The position numbers and the translations under genes were made by a program. Of a stretch of DNA of 36,485 nt, positions 3,310 through 13,650 are shown piece by piece; within the stretch, counting starts at the first letter, position 1, and every line of letters starts with the position of its first letter. The notes under the pieces were generated by a model. The model saw only the letters and a list, made by a program, of their open reading frames with translations. It had not been told where the DNA came from and made no database searches. The stretch is from Candidatus Limnocylindrales bacterium. Its GTDB lineage: Bacteria; Chloroflexota; Limnocylindria; Limnocylindrales; CSP1-4. Location of the stretch: NCBI GenBank assembly GCA_036506235.1, contig DASXSA010000135.1, positions 1 to 36,485 on the forward strand, written 5' to 3'.

Positions 3310-5061
3310 TCAGCTCGCCGTATCGACGAGCTTCGCAAACGTCGCCCTGACCTCCGCCGCAGTTGTGGCAGCGAGCGCCGCCTCGGCCGCCCGCTCGAGC
3401 TCAGTGAGGGAGGCCCCACGGATCGCGCGCCGCACCGCGGGCAGGCTGTGAGCGCCCATGCTCAGAGATCGGATCCCCAGCCCGACGAGTGCGAGGGCCG
3501 CGAGCGGATCGCCGGCCATCTCTCCACAGACGGAGAGTTCGATGCGATGCCGCGCCGCAGCCTCCACGGACAGCTGCACGAGCCGCAGCAGCGCCGGGTG
3601 CAGTGAATCGCGATAGCGCTCGAGCGCCGGATTGCCACGATCGACGGCCAGCGCGTACTGGAGCAGGTCGTTCGTCCCCAGGCTGGCGAACTCGATGTCG
3701 TCGAAATAGGAGTCGGCAACCAGGACCGCCGACGGGATCTCGAGCATGACCCCGAGGTCGACCTCGCCCGCGTCCTGCCCCGTGGCGACGACCTCGTCGC
3801 GGGCGCGTTCCGCGAGCACGCGCAGCGTCGCCGCATCGCCGGCGTCGGCCACCATCGGAGCCATCACCTTGATGCGGCCACGGCCGGCGGCGCGGTAGCA
3901 GGCACGGAGCTGGGTCAGGAACAGGTCGGGGCGCGTATCGGCCAGGCGGAGGGCGCGAACTCCGAGGAAGGGGTTCTGCTCTGCGGGTAGCGACAGGTAC
4001 GGGATGGGCTTGTCGCCGCCGATGTCGAGCAGGCGGACGGTCACCGGGTGCGGCGCGAACGCATCGGCAACCTGGCCGTAGGCGGCAACCTGCTCCTCCT
4101 CTGACGGCGGCTCCGAGCGCTCGAGGAACAGGAACTCGGTGCGGAACAGCCCGACGCCGCGGGCGCCGAGCTCCACCGCATCAGCCGCGTCCGCGGGCGT
4201 TCCGATGTTGGCCAGGAGCGTGATCGTCGTGCCGTCTGTCGTCCGCGCCGGGAGCGTCGCCTCCGCGCGTGCTTGCTGGCGTTCCTGCTGTGCACGCCCG
4301 GCCTGCTCCTGGAAGCGCGCGCCGTCGGCGTCGTCGGGCGCAATGACGATCTCCCCGCTCGACCCGTCGAGCAGCAGCTCGGCGGTCGCGTCGGCCTCCG
4401 CGAGCGCCGCCAGCAGCCCGTTCGCGCCCACCACCGCAGGGATTCCATACGCTCGAGCGAGGATCGAGGCGTGCGCGGTCGGCGAGGAGCCCTCGAGCGC
4501 AATGCCCAGGATCTTCTCGCGCGGGAGGGTCGCCGTCACCGATGGCGGCAGGTCCTCGCCGACCACGACCGACGGCACCGTGAGGCTGACCGCGGCAGCA
4601 GGCGCACCGGCCAGCTCGCGCGCGATCCTGTCCGCGACGTCGACGACGTCGGTTGCCCGCGCGCGAAGCAACTCGTCGTCGAGGCCGAGGAGGAGGTCGG
4701 CGACCGAGCGCGAGGCCGCATGGATGGCGCCCGGCCCGTCCAGCAGCCCGGTCCGGATGTGGTTCGTGGCCGCGTCGATGAGGGCCGGGTCACGGGCCAT
4801 CGCGGCGTGGGCGATGAAGATGTCCGCCTCGTCCCCGTGGCCGGCACTTCGGACATCCTCCGCGAGCTTCTCGGCCGCGACGGCAACCAGTTCGGCGGCG
4901 ACGCTCAGTCGACCGACCTCGGCATCCACCTGGTCCGCAGCGATCTGTCGTTGCACGGGCGCCTTGCCGGGTTCGAAACGCGCCCATGGGCCGCGGGCGA
5001 TTCCTGGTGCGCCCGGCGTCCCCTGGACGACCTTTCGCCCTGGCGCGATTTCGGTAGTCAT
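3310..5061 (-). CDS. ptsI: Phosphoenolpyruvate-protein phosphotransferase (PTS enzyme I)
   Basis: The 583-aa protein has the active-site His region (GSSPTAHASILARAYGIPAVVG), the PEP-utilising TIM barrel (GLFRTEFLF) and the C-terminal CGEMAGDP. Start chosen at ATG 5061, which overlaps the upstream stop as ATGA. Confidence 0.9.
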   Translation of the reverse strand: MTTEIAPGRKVVQGTPGAPGIARGPWARFEPGKAPVQRQIAADQVDAEVGRLSVAAELVAVAAEKLAEDVRSAGHGDEADIFIAHAAMARDPALIDAATNHIRTGLLDGPGAIHAASRSVADLLLGLDDELLRARATDVVDVADRIARELAGAPAAAVSLTVPSVVVGEDLPPSVTATLPREKILGIALEGSSPTAHASILARAYGIPAVVGANGLLAALAEADATAELLLDGSSGEIVIAPDDADGARFQEQAGRAQQERQQARAEATLPARTTDGTTITLLANIGTPADAADAVELGARGVGLFRTEFLFLERSEPPSEEEQVAAYGQVADAFAPHPVTVRLLDIGGDKPIPYLSLPAEQNPFLGVRALRLADTRPDLFLTQLRACYRAAGRGRIKVMAPMVADAGDAATLRVLAERARDEVVATGQDAGEVDLGVMLEIPSAVLVADSYFDDIEFASLGTNDLLQYALAVDRGNPALERYRDSLHPALLRLVQLSVEAAARHRIELSVCGEMAGDPLAALALVGLGIRSLSMGAHSLPAVRRAIRGASLTELERAAEAALAATTAAEVRATFAKLVDTAS

Positions 5062-5987
5062 GCGCTCAGCACTCTGTCGCGGTCGACACGATCGTGCACG
5101 ACCACGGCCCGCCGATCGGCATCGGTCAACGGGAGCATGCGCGTGCCCGGCGAGCGGAGGGCGGCGATCGACCACGCGACGGCCTCCGACAGCGCGGGCG
5201 CCCCCGCGCCTCGCGCGAGGAACCCGGCAAGCAGCGCATCCCCGGCACCGACGTTGTTGACCGCGTCCGGGATCACTGCCTCCGCGTGGACGACCGTTCC
5301 GCCCGAGTCTACCCAGACGGCGCCATGGCGGCCCACGCTCAGCAGGACGGATCCGACGCCGGCCGCGACCGTCTCGCAAGCCGCATCGACCGCCTCGCCG
5401 AGCGTCGTCAGCTTGCGTCCGGCGATGGTCTCCAGCTCCGACAGGTTCGGTTTGATCAACGAAGCTCCTGCACTGGCCGCGGCGGCGAGCGCCTCACCGC
5501 TCGAATCGACGGCGATTCGGCGATCGCTGGATGCAAGCCTTGCGAGCCGCGCGTAGAAGTCAAGAGGCGCCCCGGGCGGCAGAGAGCCACAACCCACGAT
5601 CCAACCCTCGCGGGTGGCGTCCGTTGCGGCGGCGAGGATCGCTTCCGCCTGTGCCTCGGAAAGGATCGGGCCGGGCTCGTTCACCTTCGTGACGGTCCCG
5701 TCGGGCTCGACGAGGCTGACGTTCGTGCGAACCGCCCCTGGGATCGCCACGGTCCGGAGGGGAATCGCACCGGCCAGCAAACCGAGGTAGGTCGCCGCCG
5801 TATCCGATGCCAGCGGCAACACTGCGATCGTTTCGACGCCCTGTTCGGCGAGAGCGCGCGACACGTTGAGCCCCTTGCCCGCTGCCTCGGACGTGGCGCG
5901 TCGCGCCCGGATCAGCCCGCCTCGCTCGATCGCATCGATCGCGATCGTCCGATCGATGCTGGGGTTCGGGGTGACCGTCACGATCAC
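5058..5987 (-). CDS. fruK: PfkB-family sugar-phosphate kinase, 1-phosphofructokinase (FruK)/tagatose-6-P kinase subfamily
   Basis: The N-terminus (M)IVTVTPNPSIDRT, the GKGLNVSR motif and the C-terminal NNVGAGDALLAGF anion hole fit this subfamily. The GTG start overlaps the upstream stop (GTGA at 5984-5987). Confidence 0.8.
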   Translation of the reverse strand: MIVTVTPNPSIDRTIAIDAIERGGLIRARRATSEAAGKGLNVSRALAEQGVETIAVLPLASDTAATYLGLLAGAIPLRTVAIPGAVRTNVSLVEPDGTVTKVNEPGPILSEAQAEAILAAATDATREGWIVGCGSLPPGAPLDFYARLARLASSDRRIAVDSSGEALAAAASAGASLIKPNLSELETIAGRKLTTLGEAVDAACETVAAGVGSVLLSVGRHGAVWVDSGGTVVHAEAVIPDAVNNVGAGDALLAGFLARGAGAPALSEAVAWSIAALRSPGTRMLPLTDADRRAVVVHDRVDRDRVLSA

Positions 5988-7708
5988 CGGTCGGGAGCGG
6001 GCCAGTATTTCGCGAAGAGGACAGCCTCTGCGTCGCGCGTCCAGGTCGGTCCGGGACCGAGGGCCGCCGCGATTGCCGGGTCTCCGGCGGCGAGGTCCTC
6101 GAGTGACGTCAGTGACAGCCCGCGCAGCTGAGGAAAGATGACGATCTTCCCGGCGAATCGGCCGTCGACCATGGCCTGCAGGCCGTCCCGCGCCGCTTCG
6201 ATGCCGCCGACCGCGCCGAGCGCACGCCCCGGGGAAAGCAGGCCGGAGAGCGTCTTGTCGACCACCCGTTGCTGGTCGGCGATCCGCGAACCGGACGTGC
6301 CCGTGTACTGCACGCCGTGCTGGAAGACCGGCGTCAAGTCGAGCGAAGCACGTGTACCGACCGGTACGCCGGCGAACAACACGAGCATCCCGTCCGGCAA
6401 CAAAGCCTCCGATCCGCCCACCACCGCCTTGGGCGTAGGCGCCGTCACGACGACGTCATCGGCGAGGCGCCCGTCGTTCTCCGCCTCGACGATCGACGCG
6501 AGCGTCTCGCCCGCTTGAGGCACGCGGAGCACCAATTCGCGACCGTTGGCCTTCGCAATGGGCTGGAGGCGGGCGGCCGCGGCGGCCAGGCGCTCCTGGT
6601 CGAGGTCGATCCCGATTAGCCGAGCAGGCCCGTCGGGCATCGACAGCGCACGCTCGATGTGCATCTGGCCCATCGGGCCCGCAGCCCCGACGAAGGCGGC
6701 CGTTCCCCCGGATCGGAGCTCGGCACGGTTGCGTTCCTCGCCGTACGCGGACGAGACGTCCAGCTCGGTCGTGCCCACGAAGGCGGTGTAGTGGTAGTGG
6801 AGCCGGCCAATGTCGAGCTCCACCGGGCCGTCGAGCGGCTCATCGGCGACCAGATTCAGCACCCCCCGGAAGGCGAGCAGGTCGGCTGCCTTCGACACCA
6901 CGGCGGCCGAGCGCGGGCCGAGGAGGATGATGTCGTCGAATGGGCCCATCGCCTCGGCCTGCTCGACGACGGTGACGCTTGCCCGGTCCCCAACCCGTCC
7001 ACGGATCTCCGCCAGGAGCTCGTCAGGGAGGTCGGTCAAGACGATCTCCCGCGCGCCGTCGAGGACGTTTCCCATGCGGTACGCGCGCTCGTCGCCGGCG
7101 CGCCCGAGGACCCACGTCCGGCCGCCTGTTGCGGGCGTGAGACGGCGCCGCTGCGTATAAGCGGCCTCGACGCACGCCCAGGGCTCGGTCAGAGCGGTCT
7201 CCGCGTAGCCGAGGCGGTCGTCGACCGGGATGACGTATGCGCCGTCGTCTGCAGCGAGGACCTCCGGGCCGATCAGCTGGTAGCCGATCAGGCCGCCCGG
7301 GATCGTGTAGCCATAGGCCGTGCTCTTCCCGTCCACGTAGATGTCGGGCTGGATCGCCAATCGCTGGCCGGCCCGGAAGCGGTCCGCCAATGTACTGCCC
7401 ACTTCGAGGATCGTGACGGCAGCCTCGTGTCCGAGTCGCGTGGGCTCGCGCGACAGGTCGCGGCCGTACAGCTTGGGATGGTCCCCGCCGAGCCGGATGA
7501 GCTTGACGTCGGAGAAGCACAGCCCGACGGCATCCACCCGGACCAACAGCTGATCTGCCGCGGGCCGACCGACCGGCACCGGCTCGGGTCGGCCGTCACG
7601 GCCGACCGCCTCGATCCCCTTGCCGTAGACGTTCCAGCCCAGGGTCTCCGACGGCAGCCTCGCCGGCACCGCCTGGTAGGCGGCGAAGCGATCCTCGACC
7701 GCGATCAC
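5984..7708 (-). CDS. Atypical 574-aa medium-chain (zinc-type) dehydrogenase/reductase with two Rossmann-like segments
   Basis: The GroES-like domain retains zinc-ligand-like positions (GLC64FSD, GH94E95, TEPWAC179V). A segment of about 120 aa follows without a glycine motif. A second segment carries G341AAGPMG. GTG start at 7708. Confidence 0.8.
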   Translation of the reverse strand: MIAVEDRFAAYQAVPARLPSETLGWNVYGKGIEAVGRDGRPEPVPVGRPAADQLLVRVDAVGLCFSDVKLIRLGGDHPKLYGRDLSREPTRLGHEAAVTILEVGSTLADRFRAGQRLAIQPDIYVDGKSTAYGYTIPGGLIGYQLIGPEVLAADDGAYVIPVDDRLGYAETALTEPWACVEAAYTQRRRLTPATGGRTWVLGRAGDERAYRMGNVLDGAREIVLTDLPDELLAEIRGRVGDRASVTVVEQAEAMGPFDDIILLGPRSAAVVSKAADLLAFRGVLNLVADEPLDGPVELDIGRLHYHYTAFVGTTELDVSSAYGEERNRAELRSGGTAAFVGAAGPMGQMHIERALSMPDGPARLIGIDLDQERLAAAAARLQPIAKANGRELVLRVPQAGETLASIVEAENDGRLADDVVVTAPTPKAVVGGSEALLPDGMLVLFAGVPVGTRASLDLTPVFQHGVQYTGTSGSRIADQQRVVDKTLSGLLSPGRALGAVGGIEAARDGLQAMVDGRFAGKIVIFPQLRGLSLTSLEDLAAGDPAIAAALGPGPTWTRDAEAVLFAKYWPAPDR

Positions 7709-7718
7709 GTCGGACGCC

Positions 7719-8018
7719 TTACTTCGGACGAGGAAGGTCGGCGTTCTTGAGAACCCGCCCAGTGTGGTCGATGATCCCCACCTTCGTGCCGATCGTCAGC
7801 GGGTTCGCGGCGAACAGGTCGCCGCCGTTGATCGCGATCCAGCGGTAGCCGGGCAGCGGGGCGAGCCGCTTGATGGCCGGCCCGATCTCGTTGCCGGTAG
7901 CCGCCACGTTGATCCGGCCCTGCGACGCGACGAGGTCGGCGAGGCCGTCCGGGTCGGGACCGGCCTTGAGCGACGTGGAAATCGCGTTCAGGAGGCCATC
8001 GCGATCGAGACGCGCCAT
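7719..8018 (-). CDS. Hypothetical 99-aa protein embedded in the PTS operon
   Basis: The ATG is preceded by GGAGG with a 6-nt spacer and lies 1 nt after the EIIA-HPr stop. Third codon positions are GC-rich. I recognise no motif. Confidence 0.6.
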   Translation of the reverse strand: MARLDRDGLLNAISTSLKAGPDPDGLADLVASQGRINVAATGNEIGPAIKRLAPLPGYRWIAINGGDLFAANPLTIGTKVGIIDHTGRVLKNADLPRPK

Positions 8019-8019
8019 G

Positions 8020-8754
8020 TCAGGCCTCCGGCCGGTTGGTCAGGACGGCGATGACGGCGTCTGTCGCGCCATCCGCGCCCGGCCCGCGGGCCACCACGCG
8101 CACGCCGTCGCCAACTGCCGCGCCCAGGCTGAGCAGTGCGGTCATGCTCCGCGCATTGGCACGGCGGCCGTTCGCCTCGATGACGATCTCGGCGTCGAAG
8201 CCCCTGATCCGGTCGACGAGCGTCGCGGCCGGCCGTGCGTGCAGCCCGGCCGGATTGGTGATCGTGACGGTCGCCACGATCTCATCGTTTTTTGGCGGAT
8301 GGCCGTTGCCTGGGGGCGCAACGCCATCCGCCGTCAGCGTTCGGTGGATCTCGGCGGCATCGGGAGTTGTCGCCAGGCGACGGCAGAGCTCCTCGTCGCC
8401 GAGGATGTTGGCGAGTCGCGACAGGACCTCGATGTGCTCTTCGGACGTCGCGGCGAGTCCGATCACGAGATATGCGGGCTCCTCTCCCCAGGGCACCCCT
8501 TCCGGGAACTGGGCGACTGCCAGGCCCGTGCGCAGGACGGCGCTCCGCGCCTCGTTCGTGCCGTGGGGCAGCGCGATCCCGTTTCCTAGGTACGTCGAGA
8601 CGATCCGCTCACGCTCGCGCATTTCAGTCACATAGTCGGGCGTGACGCATCCCTCGGCGACGAGTATCGATCCGACGAGATCGATGGCTGCCGTCTGGTC
8701 CGGAGCCCTGGCGCCGACGACGACGGCCGAGGCCGACAGGACCTCGGTCGCCAT
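8020..8754 (-). CDS. PTS EIIA (mannitol/fructose family) fused to an HPr domain
   Basis: The N-terminal half has the EIIA-Mtl phospho-His motif GIALPHGT. The C-terminal half is HPr-like, with the His15 motif ITNPAGLHARPAATLV and the Ser46 region ANARSMTALLSLG. Confidence 0.85.
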   Translation of the reverse strand: MATEVLSASAVVVGARAPDQTAAIDLVGSILVAEGCVTPDYVTEMRERERIVSTYLGNGIALPHGTNEARSAVLRTGLAVAQFPEGVPWGEEPAYLVIGLAATSEEHIEVLSRLANILGDEELCRRLATTPDAAEIHRTLTADGVAPPGNGHPPKNDEIVATVTITNPAGLHARPAATLVDRIRGFDAEIVIEANGRRANARSMTALLSLGAAVGDGVRVVARGPGADGATDAVIAVLTNRPEA

Positions 8755-9080
8755 CAGGATGCCAGCGGTTCGGCGACGTCCTCGCCGGCTGCGAGGCTCC
8801 GAAGCAGATACTCCGACGCGCTGTTGTTCAGGAAGTTCTTGAAGGAGAGGACCACCGCGTTGGGGGCGGCCTTGCGGGCTCGTTCGGACAGTCCCTGATG
8901 CGAGACGACCACGTCCGTATTGGGCGGGATCTCGTTCACCGGTGAGTGGATCACGCGGACATCAAGGCCGAGATCCTTGATCCGCTTCTTGAGCTGGTTC
9001 GCCCCGATGAGGCTCGAGCCCATCCCCGCCTCACAGACGAACACGACGAGCTTCACGTCGGCAGCGCGCTTCACGACCAT
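8754..9080 (-). CDS. PTS EIIB component (mannitol type)
   Basis: KLVVFVCEAGMGSSLIGANQLKKRI matches MtlA EIIB (IVACDAGMGSS, phospho-Cys). Start taken at ATG 9080, with GGAG 6 nt upstream. The track start (GTG 9104) lies inside a strong hairpin. Confidence 0.8.
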   Translation of the reverse strand: MVVKRAADVKLVVFVCEAGMGSSLIGANQLKKRIKDLGLDVRVIHSPVNEIPPNTDVVVSHQGLSERARKAAPNAVVLSFKNFLNNSASEYLLRSLAAGEDVAEPLAS

Positions 9081-9099
9081 GCTGAACTCCAGGGAGGTT

Positions 9100-9134
9100 G
9101 CCACCGGCCGGCAAGAGGGCCGCCGGCCGGTGGC
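9100..9134 (-). promoter_or_regulatory. Perfect 13-bp GC-rich stem-loop between EIIC and EIIB
   Basis: GCCACCGGCCGGC (9100-9112), a 9-nt loop, then GCCGGCCGGTGGC (9122-9134). It sits in the 70-nt EIIC-EIIB spacer, just upstream of the EIIB ribosome-binding site. Confidence 0.6.
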
Positions 9135-9150
9135 CGAGGGACTCGAAGGC

Positions 9151-10254
9151 TCAGGCCGGCTGCGGCGTCGGCGTCACGACCGGGGAAGGAGCCTGGGCCT
9201 GTTCGCCCTCCTCCTCCTTGACCGGCACGAGCCGCAGGATGACCGATCCGACGGCGAACGCGACGATCGCTCCGACCGCCACGCCGCTCAGCACCGGAAT
9301 GTGCTGGCCGGGTGGGGTGACGGCGAGATAGGCAAAGATGCTGCCCGGCGAGGGGGTCGCGACCAGGCCGGCGTTCGTGGTCACGAAGACGATGTCGGCC
9401 GAGATGCCACCCGCCCACATGGCCAGGATCATGATGGGGTGGGACAGGACGTACGGGAAGTAGATCTCGTGGATCCCACCCAAGAAGTGGATCACGATCG
9501 CGCCCGGCGCCGACAGCTTCGCAAGTCCCTTGCCGAAGACCGCGAACGAGAGCAGCAGCCCCAGGCCAGGGCCCGGATTGGTCTCCAGCAGGAACTCGAT
9601 CGCGCGGCCGTTCTTCGCCGCGTCCGCGACACCCAGCGGCGCAAGGACGCCGTGGTTGATGGCGTTGTTCAGGAAGAGCACCTTCCCGACCTCGATCGGG
9701 ATGTCGGCCAGTGGCAGAAGGCCCGCGCTGATCAGGCCGTGAACGAAGTCCCCCAGGGCATTCGAGAACGACGTCAGGAGCGGCCCGATGGCGAGCACGC
9801 CGCCGATGGCAAGCAGCGCGCCGAGGATGCCGGCCGAGAAGTTGTTCATCAACATCTCGAAGCCCATCGGGACGCGCTCGGCAAACGCCTCGTCGAACTT
9901 CTTGATGAGGAACCCGCCGAGGGGGCCGACGATCATCGCGCCGAGGAACATCGGCACGGACGAGCCCACGATGATTCCGGCGGTCACCACTGCCCCGACA
10001 ACGCCACCACGATGCCCGTAGACGAGCTTGCCTCCCGTGTAGCCGAGCAACAACGGAAGCAGGTAGGTGATCATCGGGCCGACCAGCTTGGCCAGCGTCT
10101 CGTTCGGGGTCCAGCCGGTCGGGATCACGAACGCGGTGATCAATCCCCACGCGATGAAGGCCGCGATGTTGGGGATGACGATGGCGGCAAGGTTGCCGCC
10201 CAGCCGTTGGATCCGCTCCTGCACGAGCCTTACCCTCCACTCCGGGTTGTACAT
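9151..10254 (-). CDS. mtlA: PTS EIIC component, mannitol-type permease
   Basis: Long blocks are near-identical to E. coli MtlA as I remember it: [73 protein letters not shown] and [22 protein letters not shown] lies directly upstream of the ATG. Confidence 0.9.
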
Positions 10255-10271
10255 CCTCTCCGGGTTGTACA
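10240..10271 (-). repeat. In-frame 18-nt tandem duplication spanning the EIIC start codon and ribosome-binding site
   Basis: The coding strand reads CTGTACAACCCGGAGAGG then ATGTACAACCCGGAGTGG, 16 of 18 identical. The 14-nt core TGTACAACCCGGAG is exact at 10258-10271 and 10240-10253. Confidence 0.7.
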
Positions 10272-10355
10272 GGGCGGCATGATCCGCGCGGCATCCGCGT
10301 CACAACAAGTCCCCAATGTGGCCGCACCGACTTATGACAATTTCGAACCGTCGAG

Positions 10356-11882
10356 TCAGTGTGTCGGTTCTCCCAGCAACCGGCTGAGGCGCCGGATATC
10401 GCGCTCGCGGAGGAGCGGGCTGACCACGACGGCGGGGACCCCGTCGGCGTCCTCCTCGATCGGGACCGTGCTCACCACGACGTCGGTCGCGATGCCGTCG
10501 GGCCCGCGCTCGAAGGCGGTCTTCGAGACCACTCTCGTTACATCGACCTGCGGAAAGACCGCCAGCAGTCGCGAAACGAGGATCCACGCCGTCGCCATCC
10601 CGGCCGGGCAGACGACGGTGACGCGGATCTTCGGCCGAAGGCGGTTCCGTTCGAGGGAGCCCGCGAGGTACATCGTCAGGAAGCCGATCTCATCGGCCGG
10701 GACGCCGGTATCGCCAAGCGGCGCGACCTCGGCGGCGATCCGGGCTGCGGCCTCATACACGTCGGGGTATCGCTCGCGGACTTCGTGTGCAAGCGGATTG
10801 CTGACGGGCAGGCCGTAGCGCAACCGGACCCGCAGCCTGCGCAGGTGCTCCGCCAGGCTACGGCGGAGCTGGTCGTCATCGGCCAGCGAGGGGTGAAGGT
10901 GCCGTGCGGCCGCCGCGACGAAGCGGTCGATCGGCTCCATCTCATCGTCTTCGGTCCCGGCCGGCCTCTCCCCTACCTCCACGAAGCCCAGGAGGAATTC
11001 GGTGATCGCCGCGACGTCCGAGTCGCCCACCACGCCGCCGCCGGTTCGCTCCATCGCGGCGGCGATGCGGCCGGCGACGTCGGCAACGGGGTGGTCGATG
11101 AGCGATCGAAGCTGGCCGCTCTGGAACTCGGCGGTCCGGCCGGCCTGGATCCGTCTCGCCACGATCGCCAGGTACAGCGTCGCGAGGATCGTGCCCGCCT
11201 CGTTCTCGTCCATCTCGCGGAGCTGGTCGAGCAGGATCGCGCGATGCGCCCCGAGGTCGAGCTGGGCAGTGAAGCTCGCCACCCCGAGAGAGCGGTCCTC
11301 GACCGGTGCGGCCCCCCGCTCGCCACTCGCCTGGCTCAGCAGCACTTCAGGCGGCACCGCCTCGAGCACGAGCGCGAGCAGGCCCTTGCGGACGTCGCTT
11401 TCGGGGCCGCGGACCACGAGACCGACGCCCGGCACGTGCTGCAGATGGAGGTGATGGTTCTCGAGCCAGGCCTCGGCCGCCCGGACGTCGCGCCGCACGG
11501 TCGCTCGCGAGGCTCCCAGCTCCGTCTCGAGGTCGGCCAGGTGGACCGGCTCGGGGGCCCGGTCGAGCAGAACGGCGAGGGCCCGAAGCTTGCGGTCGGC
11601 GGTGCTCAGGACCTGCGGCCCCGCCTCATCGTCGAGGTCCGACAGGAGCTTCGCTCGCCGGTCCTCCTCGCCCTGGATCCAGATGCCAACTCCGCGCCGA
11701 CGGCCAAGGCGCAGTCCGGCGCTACGCAGGTAGGTTTCGATCGACGGGAGGTTGTAGCGCACTACCCGGGTTGTAAGCCGGAGCGCGGTGGCGATCTCCT
11801 CGACGCTCTCGGGTCCGGCCTCGGACAGCAGATGGCGAGCGATCCGCGCCTGGCGGCTGTCGAGTGGCAGCGGCGCGCTCAT
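10356..11882 (-). CDS. mtlR: MtlR/BglG-family PRD-domain transcriptional activator (HTH-PRD-PRD-EIIB-like; no terminal EIIA-like domain)
   Basis: The N-terminal HTH (RQARIARHLLSEAGPESVEEIATALRLTTRVVRYNL) is followed by a second HTH (LGASRATVRRDVRAAEAWL) and PRD-like regions. The EIIB(Gat)-like motif KIRVTVVCPAGMATAW is present. Start chosen at ATG 11882; the upstream part of the 654-aa track ORF is Arg/Ser-rich and looks non-coding. Confidence 0.8.
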   Translation of the reverse strand: MSAPLPLDSRQARIARHLLSEAGPESVEEIATALRLTTRVVRYNLPSIETYLRSAGLRLGRRRGVGIWIQGEEDRRAKLLSDLDDEAGPQVLSTADRKLRALAVLLDRAPEPVHLADLETELGASRATVRRDVRAAEAWLENHHLHLQHVPGVGLVVRGPESDVRKGLLALVLEAVPPEVLLSQASGERGAAPVEDRSLGVASFTAQLDLGAHRAILLDQLREMDENEAGTILATLYLAIVARRIQAGRTAEFQSGQLRSLIDHPVADVAGRIAAAMERTGGGVVGDSDVAAITEFLLGFVEVGERPAGTEDDEMEPIDRFVAAAARHLHPSLADDDQLRRSLAEHLRRLRVRLRYGLPVSNPLAHEVRERYPDVYEAAARIAAEVAPLGDTGVPADEIGFLTMYLAGSLERNRLRPKIRVTVVCPAGMATAWILVSRLLAVFPQVDVTRVVSKTAFERGPDGIATDVVVSTVPIEEDADGVPAVVVSPLLRERDIRRLSRLLGEPTH

Positions 11883-12201: not shown

Positions 12202-13650
12202 GTGACGTCGCGCCGGGAGTTCGACCTCAACATCGAGCGCGTCCTGGAGAACTGGACGGTCGCGCATGCGATCCGCGAGGTGATCGCGAACGCGCTCGAC
12301 GAGGCGGCCCTGACAGGCACCGGGGATCCCGAAATCGCGAAGGACGCCGCGGGTCGCTGGCACGTTCGCGACTTCGGACGCGGGCTCCGCTACGAGCACC
12401 TCACCCAGAAGGAGAACCGGGAGAAGCTGGCCAACCCGGAGAAGGTCGTCGGCAAGTTCGGCGTCGGGCTGAAGGACGCCCTGGCGACGTTCGACCGCCG
12501 GGGGGTCGGTGTCCGCATCCGATCGCGGTTCGGCGACATCACCACAGAGAAGCAGGCCAAGCACGGCTTCACCGACATCACCACACTGCACGCGGTCATC
12601 GACGAGCCGTCTGATCCGGGCATGACGGGCACCGACGTCGAGCTCACCGGTGCGACAGACGAGGACGTGGAAGCGGCCAAGTCCCTGTTCCGCCACTACG
12701 CCGGCGACGAGGTCCTCGAGGAGACCCCGTACGGCGTCGTCCTCGCCCGGCCGAGATGGGCGGCCCGCATCTACGTCAACGGCCTGCGCGTCGCCGAGGA
12801 GCGCAACTACCTCTTCAGCTACGACATCACCTCACCCACGAAGGCTCTGCGGGCCGCGCTCAACCGCGAGCGATCGAACGTCGGCCGGACCGCCTACACG
12901 GACCGGGTCAAGGCGATCGTGCTGGCTGCGACCTCGGAGCGGGTGGCCAGCGCTCTGGCCGAGGATCTCTCGAAGTTCGAGACCGGGCGCTGGCACGACG
13001 AGGTGCAGCTGGTCGACGTCGGAGTGCATGCCTGCCAGGTCCTCAACGCGAGTGGCAAGGTCATCTTCCTCACGCCCCAGGAGCTCAACGCCGCGCGCGA
13101 CTTCGTGGACCGGGCGCGCAACGACGGATATCGGGTTGTGGTCGTACCGCAGAACATCCGGCGCAAGCTCGCCGGGGCGGTCGACATCACCGGTGCGCCG
13201 ATCGTCGACCTCGATCGCTTCAAGGCGCAGTGGAACGAGAGCTTCCAGTTCTCGTTCGTCGACCCGGCCGACCTGTCGCCCGGGGAACGCGCGATCTTCG
13301 ACCGGACGGACGAGATCCTGGCCCTGCGCGGCGGCGGACGGCCGTCCAGGCTCCGGGAGATCCTCGTCTCGACGACGATGCGCCTCGGCGCGAGCGGTTA
13401 TGCAGAGGCTGCCGGCGTGTGGGAACCCAGGGAAGGCCGAATCGTCATCAAGCGCGAGCAGTTGGCTTCGCTCGAGGCGTACGCGGGTACGCTCCTCCAC
13501 GAGGTCGCCCACGCTGTCAGCGGGACGCCGGACGTCAGCGCGGGGTTCGAGGACGCCCTGACCTCCGAGGTCGGGGCGGTCGCGACGACCGCCGTGGGCC
13601 GGGACGGTCAGCCCAAACCAGCGCCGGGGTCGGCGGCGAAGCCGAGGTAG
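12202..13650 (+). CDS. GHKL (Bergerat-fold, HATPase_c_3/MORC-like) ATPase with C-terminal HExxH metallopeptidase-like motif
   Basis: The N box is E26VIAN30ALD33, the G1 box D57FGRG and the G2 box G84KFGVG. The C-terminus has TLLH433EVAH437AVSG (nt 13498-13512) with FEDAL downstream. GTG start. Confidence 0.8.
   Translation: MTSRREFDLNIERVLENWTVAHAIREVIANALDEAALTGTGDPEIAKDAAGRWHVRDFGRGLRYEHLTQKENREKLANPEKVVGKFGVGLKDALATFDRRGVGVRIRSRFGDITTEKQAKHGFTDITTLHAVIDEPSDPGMTGTDVELTGATDEDVEAAKSLFRHYAGDEVLEETPYGVVLARPRWAARIYVNGLRVAEERNYLFSYDITSPTKALRAALNRERSNVGRTAYTDRVKAIVLAATSERVASALAEDLSKFETGRWHDEVQLVDVGVHACQVLNASGKVIFLTPQELNAARDFVDRARNDGYRVVVVPQNIRRKLAGAVDITGAPIVDLDRFKAQWNESFQFSFVDPADLSPGERAIFDRTDEILALRGGGRPSRLREILVSTTMRLGASGYAEAAGVWEPREGRIVIKREQLASLEAYAGTLLHEVAHAVSGTPDVSAGFEDALTSEVGAVATTAVGRDGQPKPAPGSAAKPR

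Follow-up and report, generated by a model that had tools for sequence, protein, structure and literature searches.

An eight-gene operon on the minus strand

We describe an eight-gene operon from a member of the Chloroflexota, a Candidatus Limnocylindrales bacterium (assembly GCA_036506235.1, contig DASXSA010000135.1), that combines a mannitol-type phosphotransferase system (PTS) with an unusually large medium-chain dehydrogenase/reductase (MDR) and a sugar-phosphate kinase. The window, by which we mean the whole stretch of DNA analyzed here, comprises 36,485 nucleotides, and open reading frame (ORF) calls together with Pfam and NCBIfam profile searches place eight codirectional genes on its minus strand between positions 3310 and 11882. 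In operon order, these encode a PRD-containing regulator, the PTS components EIIC, EIIB, and a fused EIIA-HPr, a 99-aa ORF, a 574-aa zinc MDR, a PfkB-family kinase, and PTS enzyme I (EI). An initial annotation, made by a model from the sequence alone, had proposed these genes, and profile hidden Markov model (HMM) searches of every ORF confirmed all eight positions and family calls. The coding signature of the eight ORFs fits a genome of 69% G+C, with third-position GC content (GC3) of 0.80–0.90. The dense packing that had been proposed holds for five of the seven junctions, which are overlaps or gaps of at most 10 nt (−1, 1, 10, −4, and −4 nt), but not for the longer spacers between regulator and EIIC (101 nt) and between EIIC and EIIB (46 nt). 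The four junction strings that had been read on the minus strand (GTGA at 5984–5987, ATGA at 5058–5061, TGATG at 8752–8756, and TGAcATG at 8016–8022) are all exact.

A predicted phosphorelay with a mannitol-type permease

Judged by its conserved active-site residues, the operon encodes a complete phosphorelay, in which phosphate would pass from phosphoenolpyruvate (PEP) to EI His197, HPr His172, EIIA His64, and EIIB Cys24 and then to a substrate carried by an EIIC of the MtlA/CmtA family. EI (583 aa, 3310–5061) scores 440.9 bits against TIGR01417 (cutoff 341.7), has all three PEP-utilizer domains, and carries His197 within the motif PTAHAS. The EIIA-HPr fusion (244 aa, 8020–8754) consists of a mannitol/fructose-type EIIA domain (PTS_EIIA_2, E = 4.9e-31), with the phosphorylatable His64 in GIALPHG, and an HPr domain (PTS-HPr, E = 7.4e-22) with the phosphorylatable His172; the closest relative of the EIIA domain is the IIA domain of MtlA (46% identity). 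Mannitol-type EIIB (8754–9104; Pfam PTS_IIB, E = 9.9e-14) has Cys24 in VCEAGMGSS, aligns to positions 372–470 of the MtlA IICBA model, and is 37% identical to the IIB region of MtlA. The proposal that the operon supplies its own EI and HPr domain thus stands, as both are present with their active-site histidines. Fructose PTS operons with EI and HPr are known from haloarchaea and corynebacteria, and such an arrangement is expected where PTS permeases number one or a few. By analogy with these operons, EI and HPr here, a private phosphorelay in the initial annotation, are probably the general PTS proteins of the organism rather than a pathway-specific duplicate, with genes next to a PTS that may be the only one it has.

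The permease itself belongs to the mannitol family. EIIC (367 aa, 9151–10254) matches TIGR00851 (mtlA) over model positions 1–336 of 340 with 450.6 bits, just below the cutoff of 468.4, and PRK15083 with 451 bits. It is 55.4% identical to Escherichia coli MtlA and 55.6% identical to CmtA, which are themselves 53% identical to each other. This level of identity bears out the mannitol-type assignment of the initial annotation, which had also named affinity to fructose permeases as an outcome that would change the substrate; all NCBIfam matches of EIIC are to mannitol models, and none is to a fructose EIIC model.

We read the operon as one for PTS-dependent hexitol catabolism in a soil bacterium, for which D-mannitol is the most likely substrate. 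Import of another hexitol or related polyol, with the dehydrogenase and kinase acting on the polyol phosphate it yields, is a decidedly unlikely alternative: D-glucitol phosphorylated at C1, for example, would also lead to fructose-1-phosphate, while other polyols would lead to other ketose phosphates. This explanation draws on the equal distance of EIIC from MtlA and the cryptic CmtA, on its score just under the mtlA cutoff, and on the kinase of one related locus (L027), whose LacC score lies near its FruK score. On the other side, every NCBIfam match of EIIC is to a mannitol model, the EIIA domain is closest to that of MtlA, and neither the window nor the conserved positions of related loci encode an aldolase for a non-fructose bisphosphate.

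The mannitol-1-phosphate 5-dehydrogenase of canonical mannitol operons, MtlD (EC 1.1.1.17), is missing from the cluster. Neither the window nor any of 83 related loci gave a match in a tblastn search with E. coli MtlD (E ≤ 1e-3), and no related family turned up when the flanking ORFs were scanned with Pfam, in agreement with the absence of MtlD noted initially.

The first gene of the operon encodes a transcriptional regulator of probable MtlR/LicR type (508 aa, 10356–11882). Pfam detects one PRD (E = 2.7e-12), an HTH_11 domain (E = 5.4e-7), and weak matches to Mga (E = 0.01) and PTS_IIB (E = 0.046), whereas regulators of this type with two PRDs and EIIB-like and EIIA-like domains reach ~690 aa. 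No C-terminal EIIA domain was found by Pfam. The Herpetosiphon orthologue has a PTS_IIB match at 3.6e-9, and a full-length protein 98% identical to the regulator is encoded in locus L001.

A dehydrogenase with a duplicated Rossmann domain

The 574-aa protein (5984–7708), a predicted hexitol-phosphate dehydrogenase, is most similar to L-sorbose-1-phosphate reductase (SorE) and to E. coli YggP. Pfam finds ADH_N and a weak ADH_zinc_N, and BLASTP returns SorE at 4e-24 (28% identity) and YggP at 5e-23 (29% identity), with the C-terminal tail of YggP aligning to that of the query up to query residue 568. When annotated plasmids were searched by tblastn, YggP and SorE scored 84–99 bits, above idonate dehydrogenase and other MDRs (57–72 bits), and the best annotated relatives included a full-length, 39% identical protein from Deinococcus sp. 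By these comparisons the protein belongs to the SorE/YggP branch of zinc MDRs and SorE is its closest characterized relative, consistent with the use of SorE as a precedent in the initial annotation. In one paper (PMC11519228), SORE appears only as one branch among the polyol-dehydrogenase MDRs. A fused DhaK-DhaL dihydroxyacetone kinase, which would have a similar size and a link to the PTS, was considered for this ORF and ruled out, as Pfam and NCBIfam give MDR domains only.

The size of this dehydrogenase, initially described as a giant MDR, is explained by a tandem duplication of its cofactor-binding Rossmann domain. In BLASTP, the one Rossmann domain that SorE and YggP possess matches the query at two places, residues ~176–314 and ~295–470. 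The two copies also match each other in hhalign, with a probability of 97.6%, E = 2.9e-12, and 27% identity across 139 aligned columns (profiles from 40 homologues). The protein can accordingly be divided into a GroES-like catalytic lobe with the zinc ligands (residues 1–178, positions 7175–7708; ADH_N at residues 51–126), a Rossmann-like copy 1 that aligns to copy 2 as well as to the SorE and YggP domains (residues ~179–316, 6761–7174), Rossmann copy 2 (residues ~317–476, 6281–6760; ADH_zinc_N at residues 362–484), and a returning segment of the catalytic domain with the C-terminal tail shared with YggP, placed by alignment to the latter (residues 477–574, 5984–6280). Ordinary MDRs in the PDB match only the N-terminal 120 residues and segment 328–523 in sequence searches; yeast ADH1 residues 164–342, for example, align to residues 328–523. 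Copy 1, which is degenerate, has lost the glycine-rich motif (VLGRAGDERAY), and copy 2, the presumed NAD(P)-binding domain, retains it (GAAGPMG, extending to GAAGPMGQMH). An Asp at the end of β2 in copy 2 (IDLD) points to a preference for NAD.

Conserved residues are those expected of a zinc enzyme with an anionic substrate. The zinc ligands C64, H94, E95, and E175 show no substitution among 40 close homologues, and conservation of each across 73 long-form representatives is 90% or higher, which upholds the assignment as a zinc MDR whose ligands are intact; the protein lacks the structural-zinc Cys lobe. Basic residues that are invariant or nearly so (R57, K69, R116, R187–189, R302, and R326/R328) would suit such a substrate.

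A predicted structure agrees with an MDR that carries an additional domain. The AlphaFold2 model (pLDDT 85.6, pTM 0.83) retrieves standard zinc MDRs of 340–360 aa from the PDB in Foldseek searches (sorbitol, threonine, and alcohol dehydrogenases), with TM-scores of ~0.7 normalized to the target and at most 0.48 normalized to the query, a pattern that the extra domain would produce. The fold search found no solved structure with a duplicated-Rossmann architecture in the PDB, which makes this MDR a structural oddity with no solved representative. The family is large: a library clustered at 50% identity holds at least 269 clusters at E ≤ 1e-30, and ~70 of the best 150 are full-length proteins of 535–605 aa, down to 31% identity. 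Public pipelines label its members "threonine dehydrogenase-like" or "L-sorbose 1-phosphate reductase."

A PfkB-family kinase of the FruK/LacC/Pfk-2 subfamily

The kinase gene (309 aa, 5058–5987) overlaps that of the dehydrogenase. Its match to TIGR03168 (255.5 bits, cutoff 216.4) and its GAGD catalytic motif, beginning at residue 247, place it securely in the FruK/LacC/Pfk-2 subfamily by sequence. Within that subfamily, the FruK equivalog model TIGR03828 scores highest (251.9 bits), followed by Pfk-2 (106 bits) and LacC (98 bits), and the PDB ranking is likewise headed by FruK (Bacillus halodurans FruK 2abq 126 bits, E. coli FruK 115, Pfk-2 103, LacC 99). The FruK cutoff of 292 bits is exceeded by kinases at the same position in the Anaerolineae-type clusters L027 and L054 and in the Fidelibacterota cluster L080, with 312–322 bits compared with 147–175 bits for the Pfk-2 model. 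FruK-type specificity is thus our best guess. The FruK-like kinase of the initial annotation therefore holds as to subfamily and as to the top-scoring models, but the window kinase misses the FruK equivalog cutoff and does not group with FruK in a neighbor-joining (NJ) tree.

Conservation across Chloroflexota

Association of the permease, dehydrogenase, and kinase is widespread in the phylum. A scan of one genome per species with the 574-aa protein yielded 191 relatives, and we analyzed the best 80 loci by tblastn of the eight window proteins. The top locus comes from the soil metagenome-assembled genome (MAG) "Chloroflexi bacterium CF_65" and has genes for all eight proteins in the same order, at 93–100% identity, and the next-best loci belong to Ca. 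Limnocylindria and Limnocylindrales MAGs. Of the 56 loci whose upstream sequence extends for at least 4.5 kb, 55 carry a mannitol-type EIIC upstream of the dehydrogenase on the same strand; of the 66 whose downstream sequence extends for at least 1.6 kb, 57 have a PfkB kinase that starts at most 700 nt downstream of the dehydrogenase. Because both genes recur in nearly all or most informative loci, their association with the dehydrogenase is not due to chance, and the check on gene order that accompanied the initial annotation comes out in its favor.

The conserved set spans Limnocylindria, Anaerolineae, Chloroflexia, and cultured Herpetosiphon species, with two main arrangements. Limnocylindria clusters share the order regulator, EIIC, EIIB, EIIA-HPr, 99-aa protein, dehydrogenase, kinase, and EI. 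In Anaerolineae, Chloroflexia, and Herpetosiphon, the order is regulator, EIIC, EIIB, EIIA, HPr(-)EI, dehydrogenase, and then usually the kinase. For example, Herpetosiphon aurantiacus DSM 785 (L062, 5848–7992) encodes HPr, a linker, and EI as one 714-aa ORF and EIIA as a separate gene; its dehydrogenase orthologue is found at ~1,782,233–1,783,950 of CP000875. The dehydrogenase and kinase also occur together on a Fidelibacterota chromosome (L080, CP070638, 471–10678), where the long dehydrogenase overlaps a FruK-equivalog kinase; upstream lie a 339-aa polyol-type MDR dehydrogenase, an iron-dependent alcohol dehydrogenase, and a divergent sugar ATP-binding cassette transporter.

Genomic contexts of dehydrogenase relatives

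Relatives of the dehydrogenase are found beside diverse enzymes of sugar-phosphate metabolism. SorE genes sit in sorbose PTS operons. In E. coli (L083, 5106–10460), cmtB-cmtA is followed directly by yggP and then by yggF (a class II fructose-1,6-bisphosphatase paralogue), yggD, and the kinase-family gene yggC, and Photobacterium (L085, 5078–9509) has cmtB-cmtA-yggP-yggD-yggC. This cmt-ygg linkage, conserved in two gammaproteobacterial genera, hints at a dedicated pathway downstream of the cryptic mannitol system. The long-form MDR of Deinococcus lies between a short-chain dehydrogenase/reductase (SDR) and an FGGY sugar kinase. In a distant long-form clade (Armatimonadota and others), three of four loci inspected (L089, L090, and L091) have a class II aldolase (PF00596, the fuculose/rhamnulose-1-phosphate aldolase family) immediately upstream, with the SDR adjacent or fused, so that the three enzymes form a conserved module; the fused SDR-MDR proteins reach ~850–880 aa. 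The fourth locus shows no such aldolase/SDR context. The contexts of these relatives thus all involve sugar-phosphate enzymes, and several involve ketose-1-phosphates specifically.

A possible route through fructose-1-phosphate

Taken together, the genes suggest a route from mannitol to glycolysis that bypasses fructose-6-phosphate. The permease would deliver mannitol-1-phosphate, which the SorE-like dehydrogenase would oxidize at C2, beside the phosphorylated carbon, to fructose-1-phosphate, in the reverse of the SorE-type reaction. The FruK-like kinase would then convert fructose-1-phosphate to fructose-1,6-bisphosphate, for cleavage by a housekeeping aldolase. We consider this sequence of steps the best reading of the operon, at slightly better than an even chance.

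Several lines of evidence favor this route. SorE, the nearest characterized homologue, interconverts L-sorbose-1-phosphate and D-glucitol-6-phosphate and so acts on the carbon adjoining the phosphate ester. L-Sorbose is the C5 epimer of D-fructose, and D-glucitol-6-phosphate (equivalent to L-gulitol-1-phosphate) is the C5 epimer of D-mannitol-1-phosphate; because both partners differ at C5 only, the SorE pair and the proposed pair share the configuration at C2–C4. Conservation of the dehydrogenase goes along with that of a FruK-type kinase, also at a locus that has no PTS close by (L080), and the cluster has no fructose-type EIIC that could supply fructose-1-phosphate directly. Relatives of the dehydrogenase sit in ketose-1-phosphate and polyol-phosphate contexts, and E. 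coli and Photobacterium pair cmtBA with YggP and the kinase-family YggC. Fructose-1,6-bisphosphate as the product also fits the lack of a dedicated aldolase, which Pfam did not find in the window or flanking ORFs and which is likewise missing from the conserved positions of related loci. The general scheme of the initial annotation, in which a polyol phosphate is oxidized to a ketose phosphate that is phosphorylated again, gains support in its fructose-1-phosphate form from SorE regiochemistry, from the phylum-wide co-conservation of dehydrogenase and kinase, and from the contexts of distant relatives, while kinase specificity is equivocal. Its second option, a galactitol/tagatose-6-phosphate-like route, is disfavored, as the Pfam scans of the flanking ORFs revealed no tagatose-bisphosphate aldolase.

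Other observations weigh against the route through fructose-1-phosphate. The dehydrogenase is only 28% identical to SorE, and an EIIC that is 55% identical to MtlA and CmtA alike gives no substrate readout. The window kinase falls below the FruK equivalog cutoff (251.9 vs. 292 bits), it is 32–35% identical to both E. coli FruK and Pfk-2 (29–37% across the pairwise comparisons), and a small NJ tree with E. coli FruK, Pfk-2, and PsuK as references did not place the window kinase with FruK; for the L027 kinase, LacC (176 bits) comes near FruK (182 bits) in the PDB comparison. An adjacent kinase is missing from Herpetosiphon clusters, that of H. aurantiacus DSM 785 included, and from three other loci, and the Fidelibacterota locus (L080) has no PTS within 8 kb. 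The absence of mtlD applies to the window and 83 loci, not to the whole genome. Finally, regiochemistry does not follow from the MDR fold: GatD, itself an MDR, oxidizes the carbon distal to the phosphate, and a zinc MDR mannitol-1-phosphate dehydrogenase of Cryptococcus neoformans reportedly forms fructose-6-phosphate.

These last precedents bear on an unlikely alternative, in which the dehydrogenase is a non-orthologous replacement of MtlD that oxidizes mannitol-1-phosphate at C5 to fructose-6-phosphate and the kinase is a Pfk-2-like 6-phosphofructokinase that produces fructose-1,6-bisphosphate. The kinase is about equally similar to E. coli Pfk-2 and FruK in pairwise comparison, several Anaerolineae-type kinases have higher BLAST scores to Pfk-2 and lie near it in the NJ tree, and the window kinase is under the FruK cutoff; Herpetosiphon clusters without an adjacent kinase would be expected if the product were an ordinary glycolytic intermediate. 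The HMMs, however, favor FruK over Pfk-2 both for the window kinase (252 vs. 106 bits) and for its relatives (312–322 vs. 147–175 bits), FruK tops the PDB ranking, and SorE acts beside the phosphate. A dedicated fructose-6-phosphate kinase would also be redundant, yet the kinase is directly downstream of the dehydrogenase in 57/66 loci.

The pathway could also run in the reductive direction, a reading we regard as highly improbable. Fructose would then be imported as fructose-1-phosphate and partly reduced to mannitol-1-phosphate, as a redox sink or compatible-solute precursor, with FruK taking the rest. SorE is physiologically a reductase, a FruK within the operon is classically tied to fructose PTS uptake, and the EIIA-HPr fusion resembles FruB (PRK11109, 196 bits). 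Against these similarities, EIIC matches mannitol-family models and no fructose EIIC model, the cluster has no mannitol-1-phosphate phosphatase, and the regulator is a catabolic PRD-type activator.

Oxidation of mannitol-1-phosphate to fructose-1-phosphate would have consequences beyond this operon. The enzyme reaction would be new, and mannitol taken up by the PTS would have a second way into glycolysis that does not depend on MtlD. A large uncharacterized family abundant in soil Chloroflexota and Armatimonadota would thereby receive a function, and for E. coli YggP and the cryptic cmt operon there would be a concrete hypothesis to test. The more inclusive proposal, that Chloroflexota possess a mannitol-1-phosphate 2-dehydrogenase route via fructose-1-phosphate, that its duplicated-Rossmann MDR is a hitherto unrecognized architecture with a repurposed copy 1, and that the same chemistry applies to cmtBA-yggP, is tentative and falls a little short of an even chance.

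Other features of the operon and its flanks

The 99-aa protein encoded between EIIA-HPr and the dehydrogenase (7719–8018, minus strand) is conserved and has no family assignment. Its gene is limited to Limnocylindria-type clusters (25 of the 80 loci), always at this position, and the 455 database homologues are all ~99 aa long and annotated "hypothetical." No family was found in Pfam at E ≤ 10 or in NCBIfam, and a fold search gave no PDB match (best Foldseek E = 0.9, with one of five AlphaFold2 models confident). In one database dehydrogenase (P0094, 593 aa), an N-terminal extension matches the middle of the 99-aa protein (LADLVAS.GRI.VAAT...IGPAIKR), which would fit a deletion fusion or else an artefact of gene calling.

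Many Anaerolineae-type clusters have a different small, conserved gene between dehydrogenase and kinase, encoding a protein of ~125 aa. It is found, for example, at ~9750–10125 in L027 and at the same position in L029, L030, L036, L038–L040, L044, L048, L052, L061, L070, and L076. The protein is a predicted multi-pass membrane protein with the motif YxLVGxGLGLYFGLFFRPxREPNF, is unrelated to the 99-aa protein, and has no NCBIfam match.

Two repeats flank the ends of the EIIC gene. The 46-nt spacer between EIIC and EIIB contains a perfect 13-bp inverted repeat (GCCACCGGCCGGC / GCCGGCCGGTGGC) with a 9-nt loop at 9100–9134, whose 3′ arm on the minus strand overlaps the GTG at 9104; no T-run follows it. 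The repeat may occlude the EIIB start, or the true start of EIIB may be an ATG ~24 nt downstream (~9080). At the other end, the 14-nt string TGTACAACCCGGAG occurs twice on the minus strand, 18 nt apart (10240–10275), with copies that straddle the EIIC start codon (...CTGTACAACCCGGAGAGGATGTACAACCCGGAGTGG...), so that the ribosome-binding region of EIIC resembles a short tandem copy of its first codons. A scan for promoters and terminators within the operon found nothing above shuffle expectation.

Genes around the operon lie outside sugar metabolism. Pfam scans of the flanking ORFs identify an ArsR-type regulator, hydrolases, a FAD oxidase, and a glycosyltransferase. Divergent from the operon regulator, a 482-aa ORF on the plus strand (12202–13650) has a strong coding signal (GC3 0.90) and no Pfam family at E ≤ 0.001.

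Comparison with known systems

The operon shares its transport module with canonical mannitol operons and differs from them downstream. Like E. coli mtlADR and Firmicute mtlARFD, it encodes an MtlA-family EIIC, EIIB, and EIIA with the same phosphorylation residues, and its PRD/helix-turn-helix regulator resembles the MtlR of Firmicute operons, although it lacks the C-terminal EIIA domain. In place of MtlD, which belongs to the long-chain mannitol dehydrogenase family, it has a SorE-like MDR and a PfkB kinase, and unlike the canonical operons it carries EI and HPr. Fructose PTS operons with fruK and ptsI/ptsH (haloarchaea and Corynebacterium) similarly bring together EI, HPr, EII, and 1-phosphofructokinase, but their fructose-type EIIC yields fructose-1-phosphate directly, so that a dehydrogenase is unneeded.

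Among characterized dehydrogenases, SorE of Klebsiella, Serratia, and Lactobacillus has the same zinc ligands, is encoded in PTS operons, and acts on a PTS-derived sugar phosphate. It differs in its length of ~410 aa with a single Rossmann domain (compared with 574 aa and two copies here), in its association with a mannose-family PTS and an SDR (SorD/F) rather than a mannitol-type PTS and FruK-like kinase, and in working as a reductase on L-sorbose-1-phosphate. The gat operon (GatABC, GatD, and GatYZ) follows the same logic: a hexitol phosphate supplied by the PTS is oxidized by a zinc MDR, phosphorylated again, and split by aldol cleavage. It uses another PTS family, however, its GatD is of standard length and oxidizes the carbon distal to the phosphate, and it needs a tagatose-bisphosphate aldolase, which the window does not encode.

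The cmt-ygg clusters of E. coli and Photobacterium resemble the operon in part of their gene content. They too follow a mannitol-family PTS with a SorE-like MDR, which shares the C-terminal tail, and with the kinase-family YggC. YggP has 425 aa and one Rossmann domain, YggC is of the P-loop rather than PfkB type, and the cluster lacks EI and HPr. Full-text literature searches found no paper on the present operon, on the function of YggP, or on a fructose-1-phosphate-forming mannitol-1-phosphate dehydrogenase. The novelty claimed at the outset is accordingly qualified, as the uncharacterized cmtBA-yggP cluster already offers an example of a mannitol-type PTS joined to a SorE-like MDR. The system as a whole is a variation on a known theme, from PTS through polyol-phosphate dehydrogenase to glycolysis, rather than a new kind of system; within that theme, this PTS hexitol operon is set apart by a non-orthologous dehydrogenase of unusual architecture and by a reaction that is probably new.

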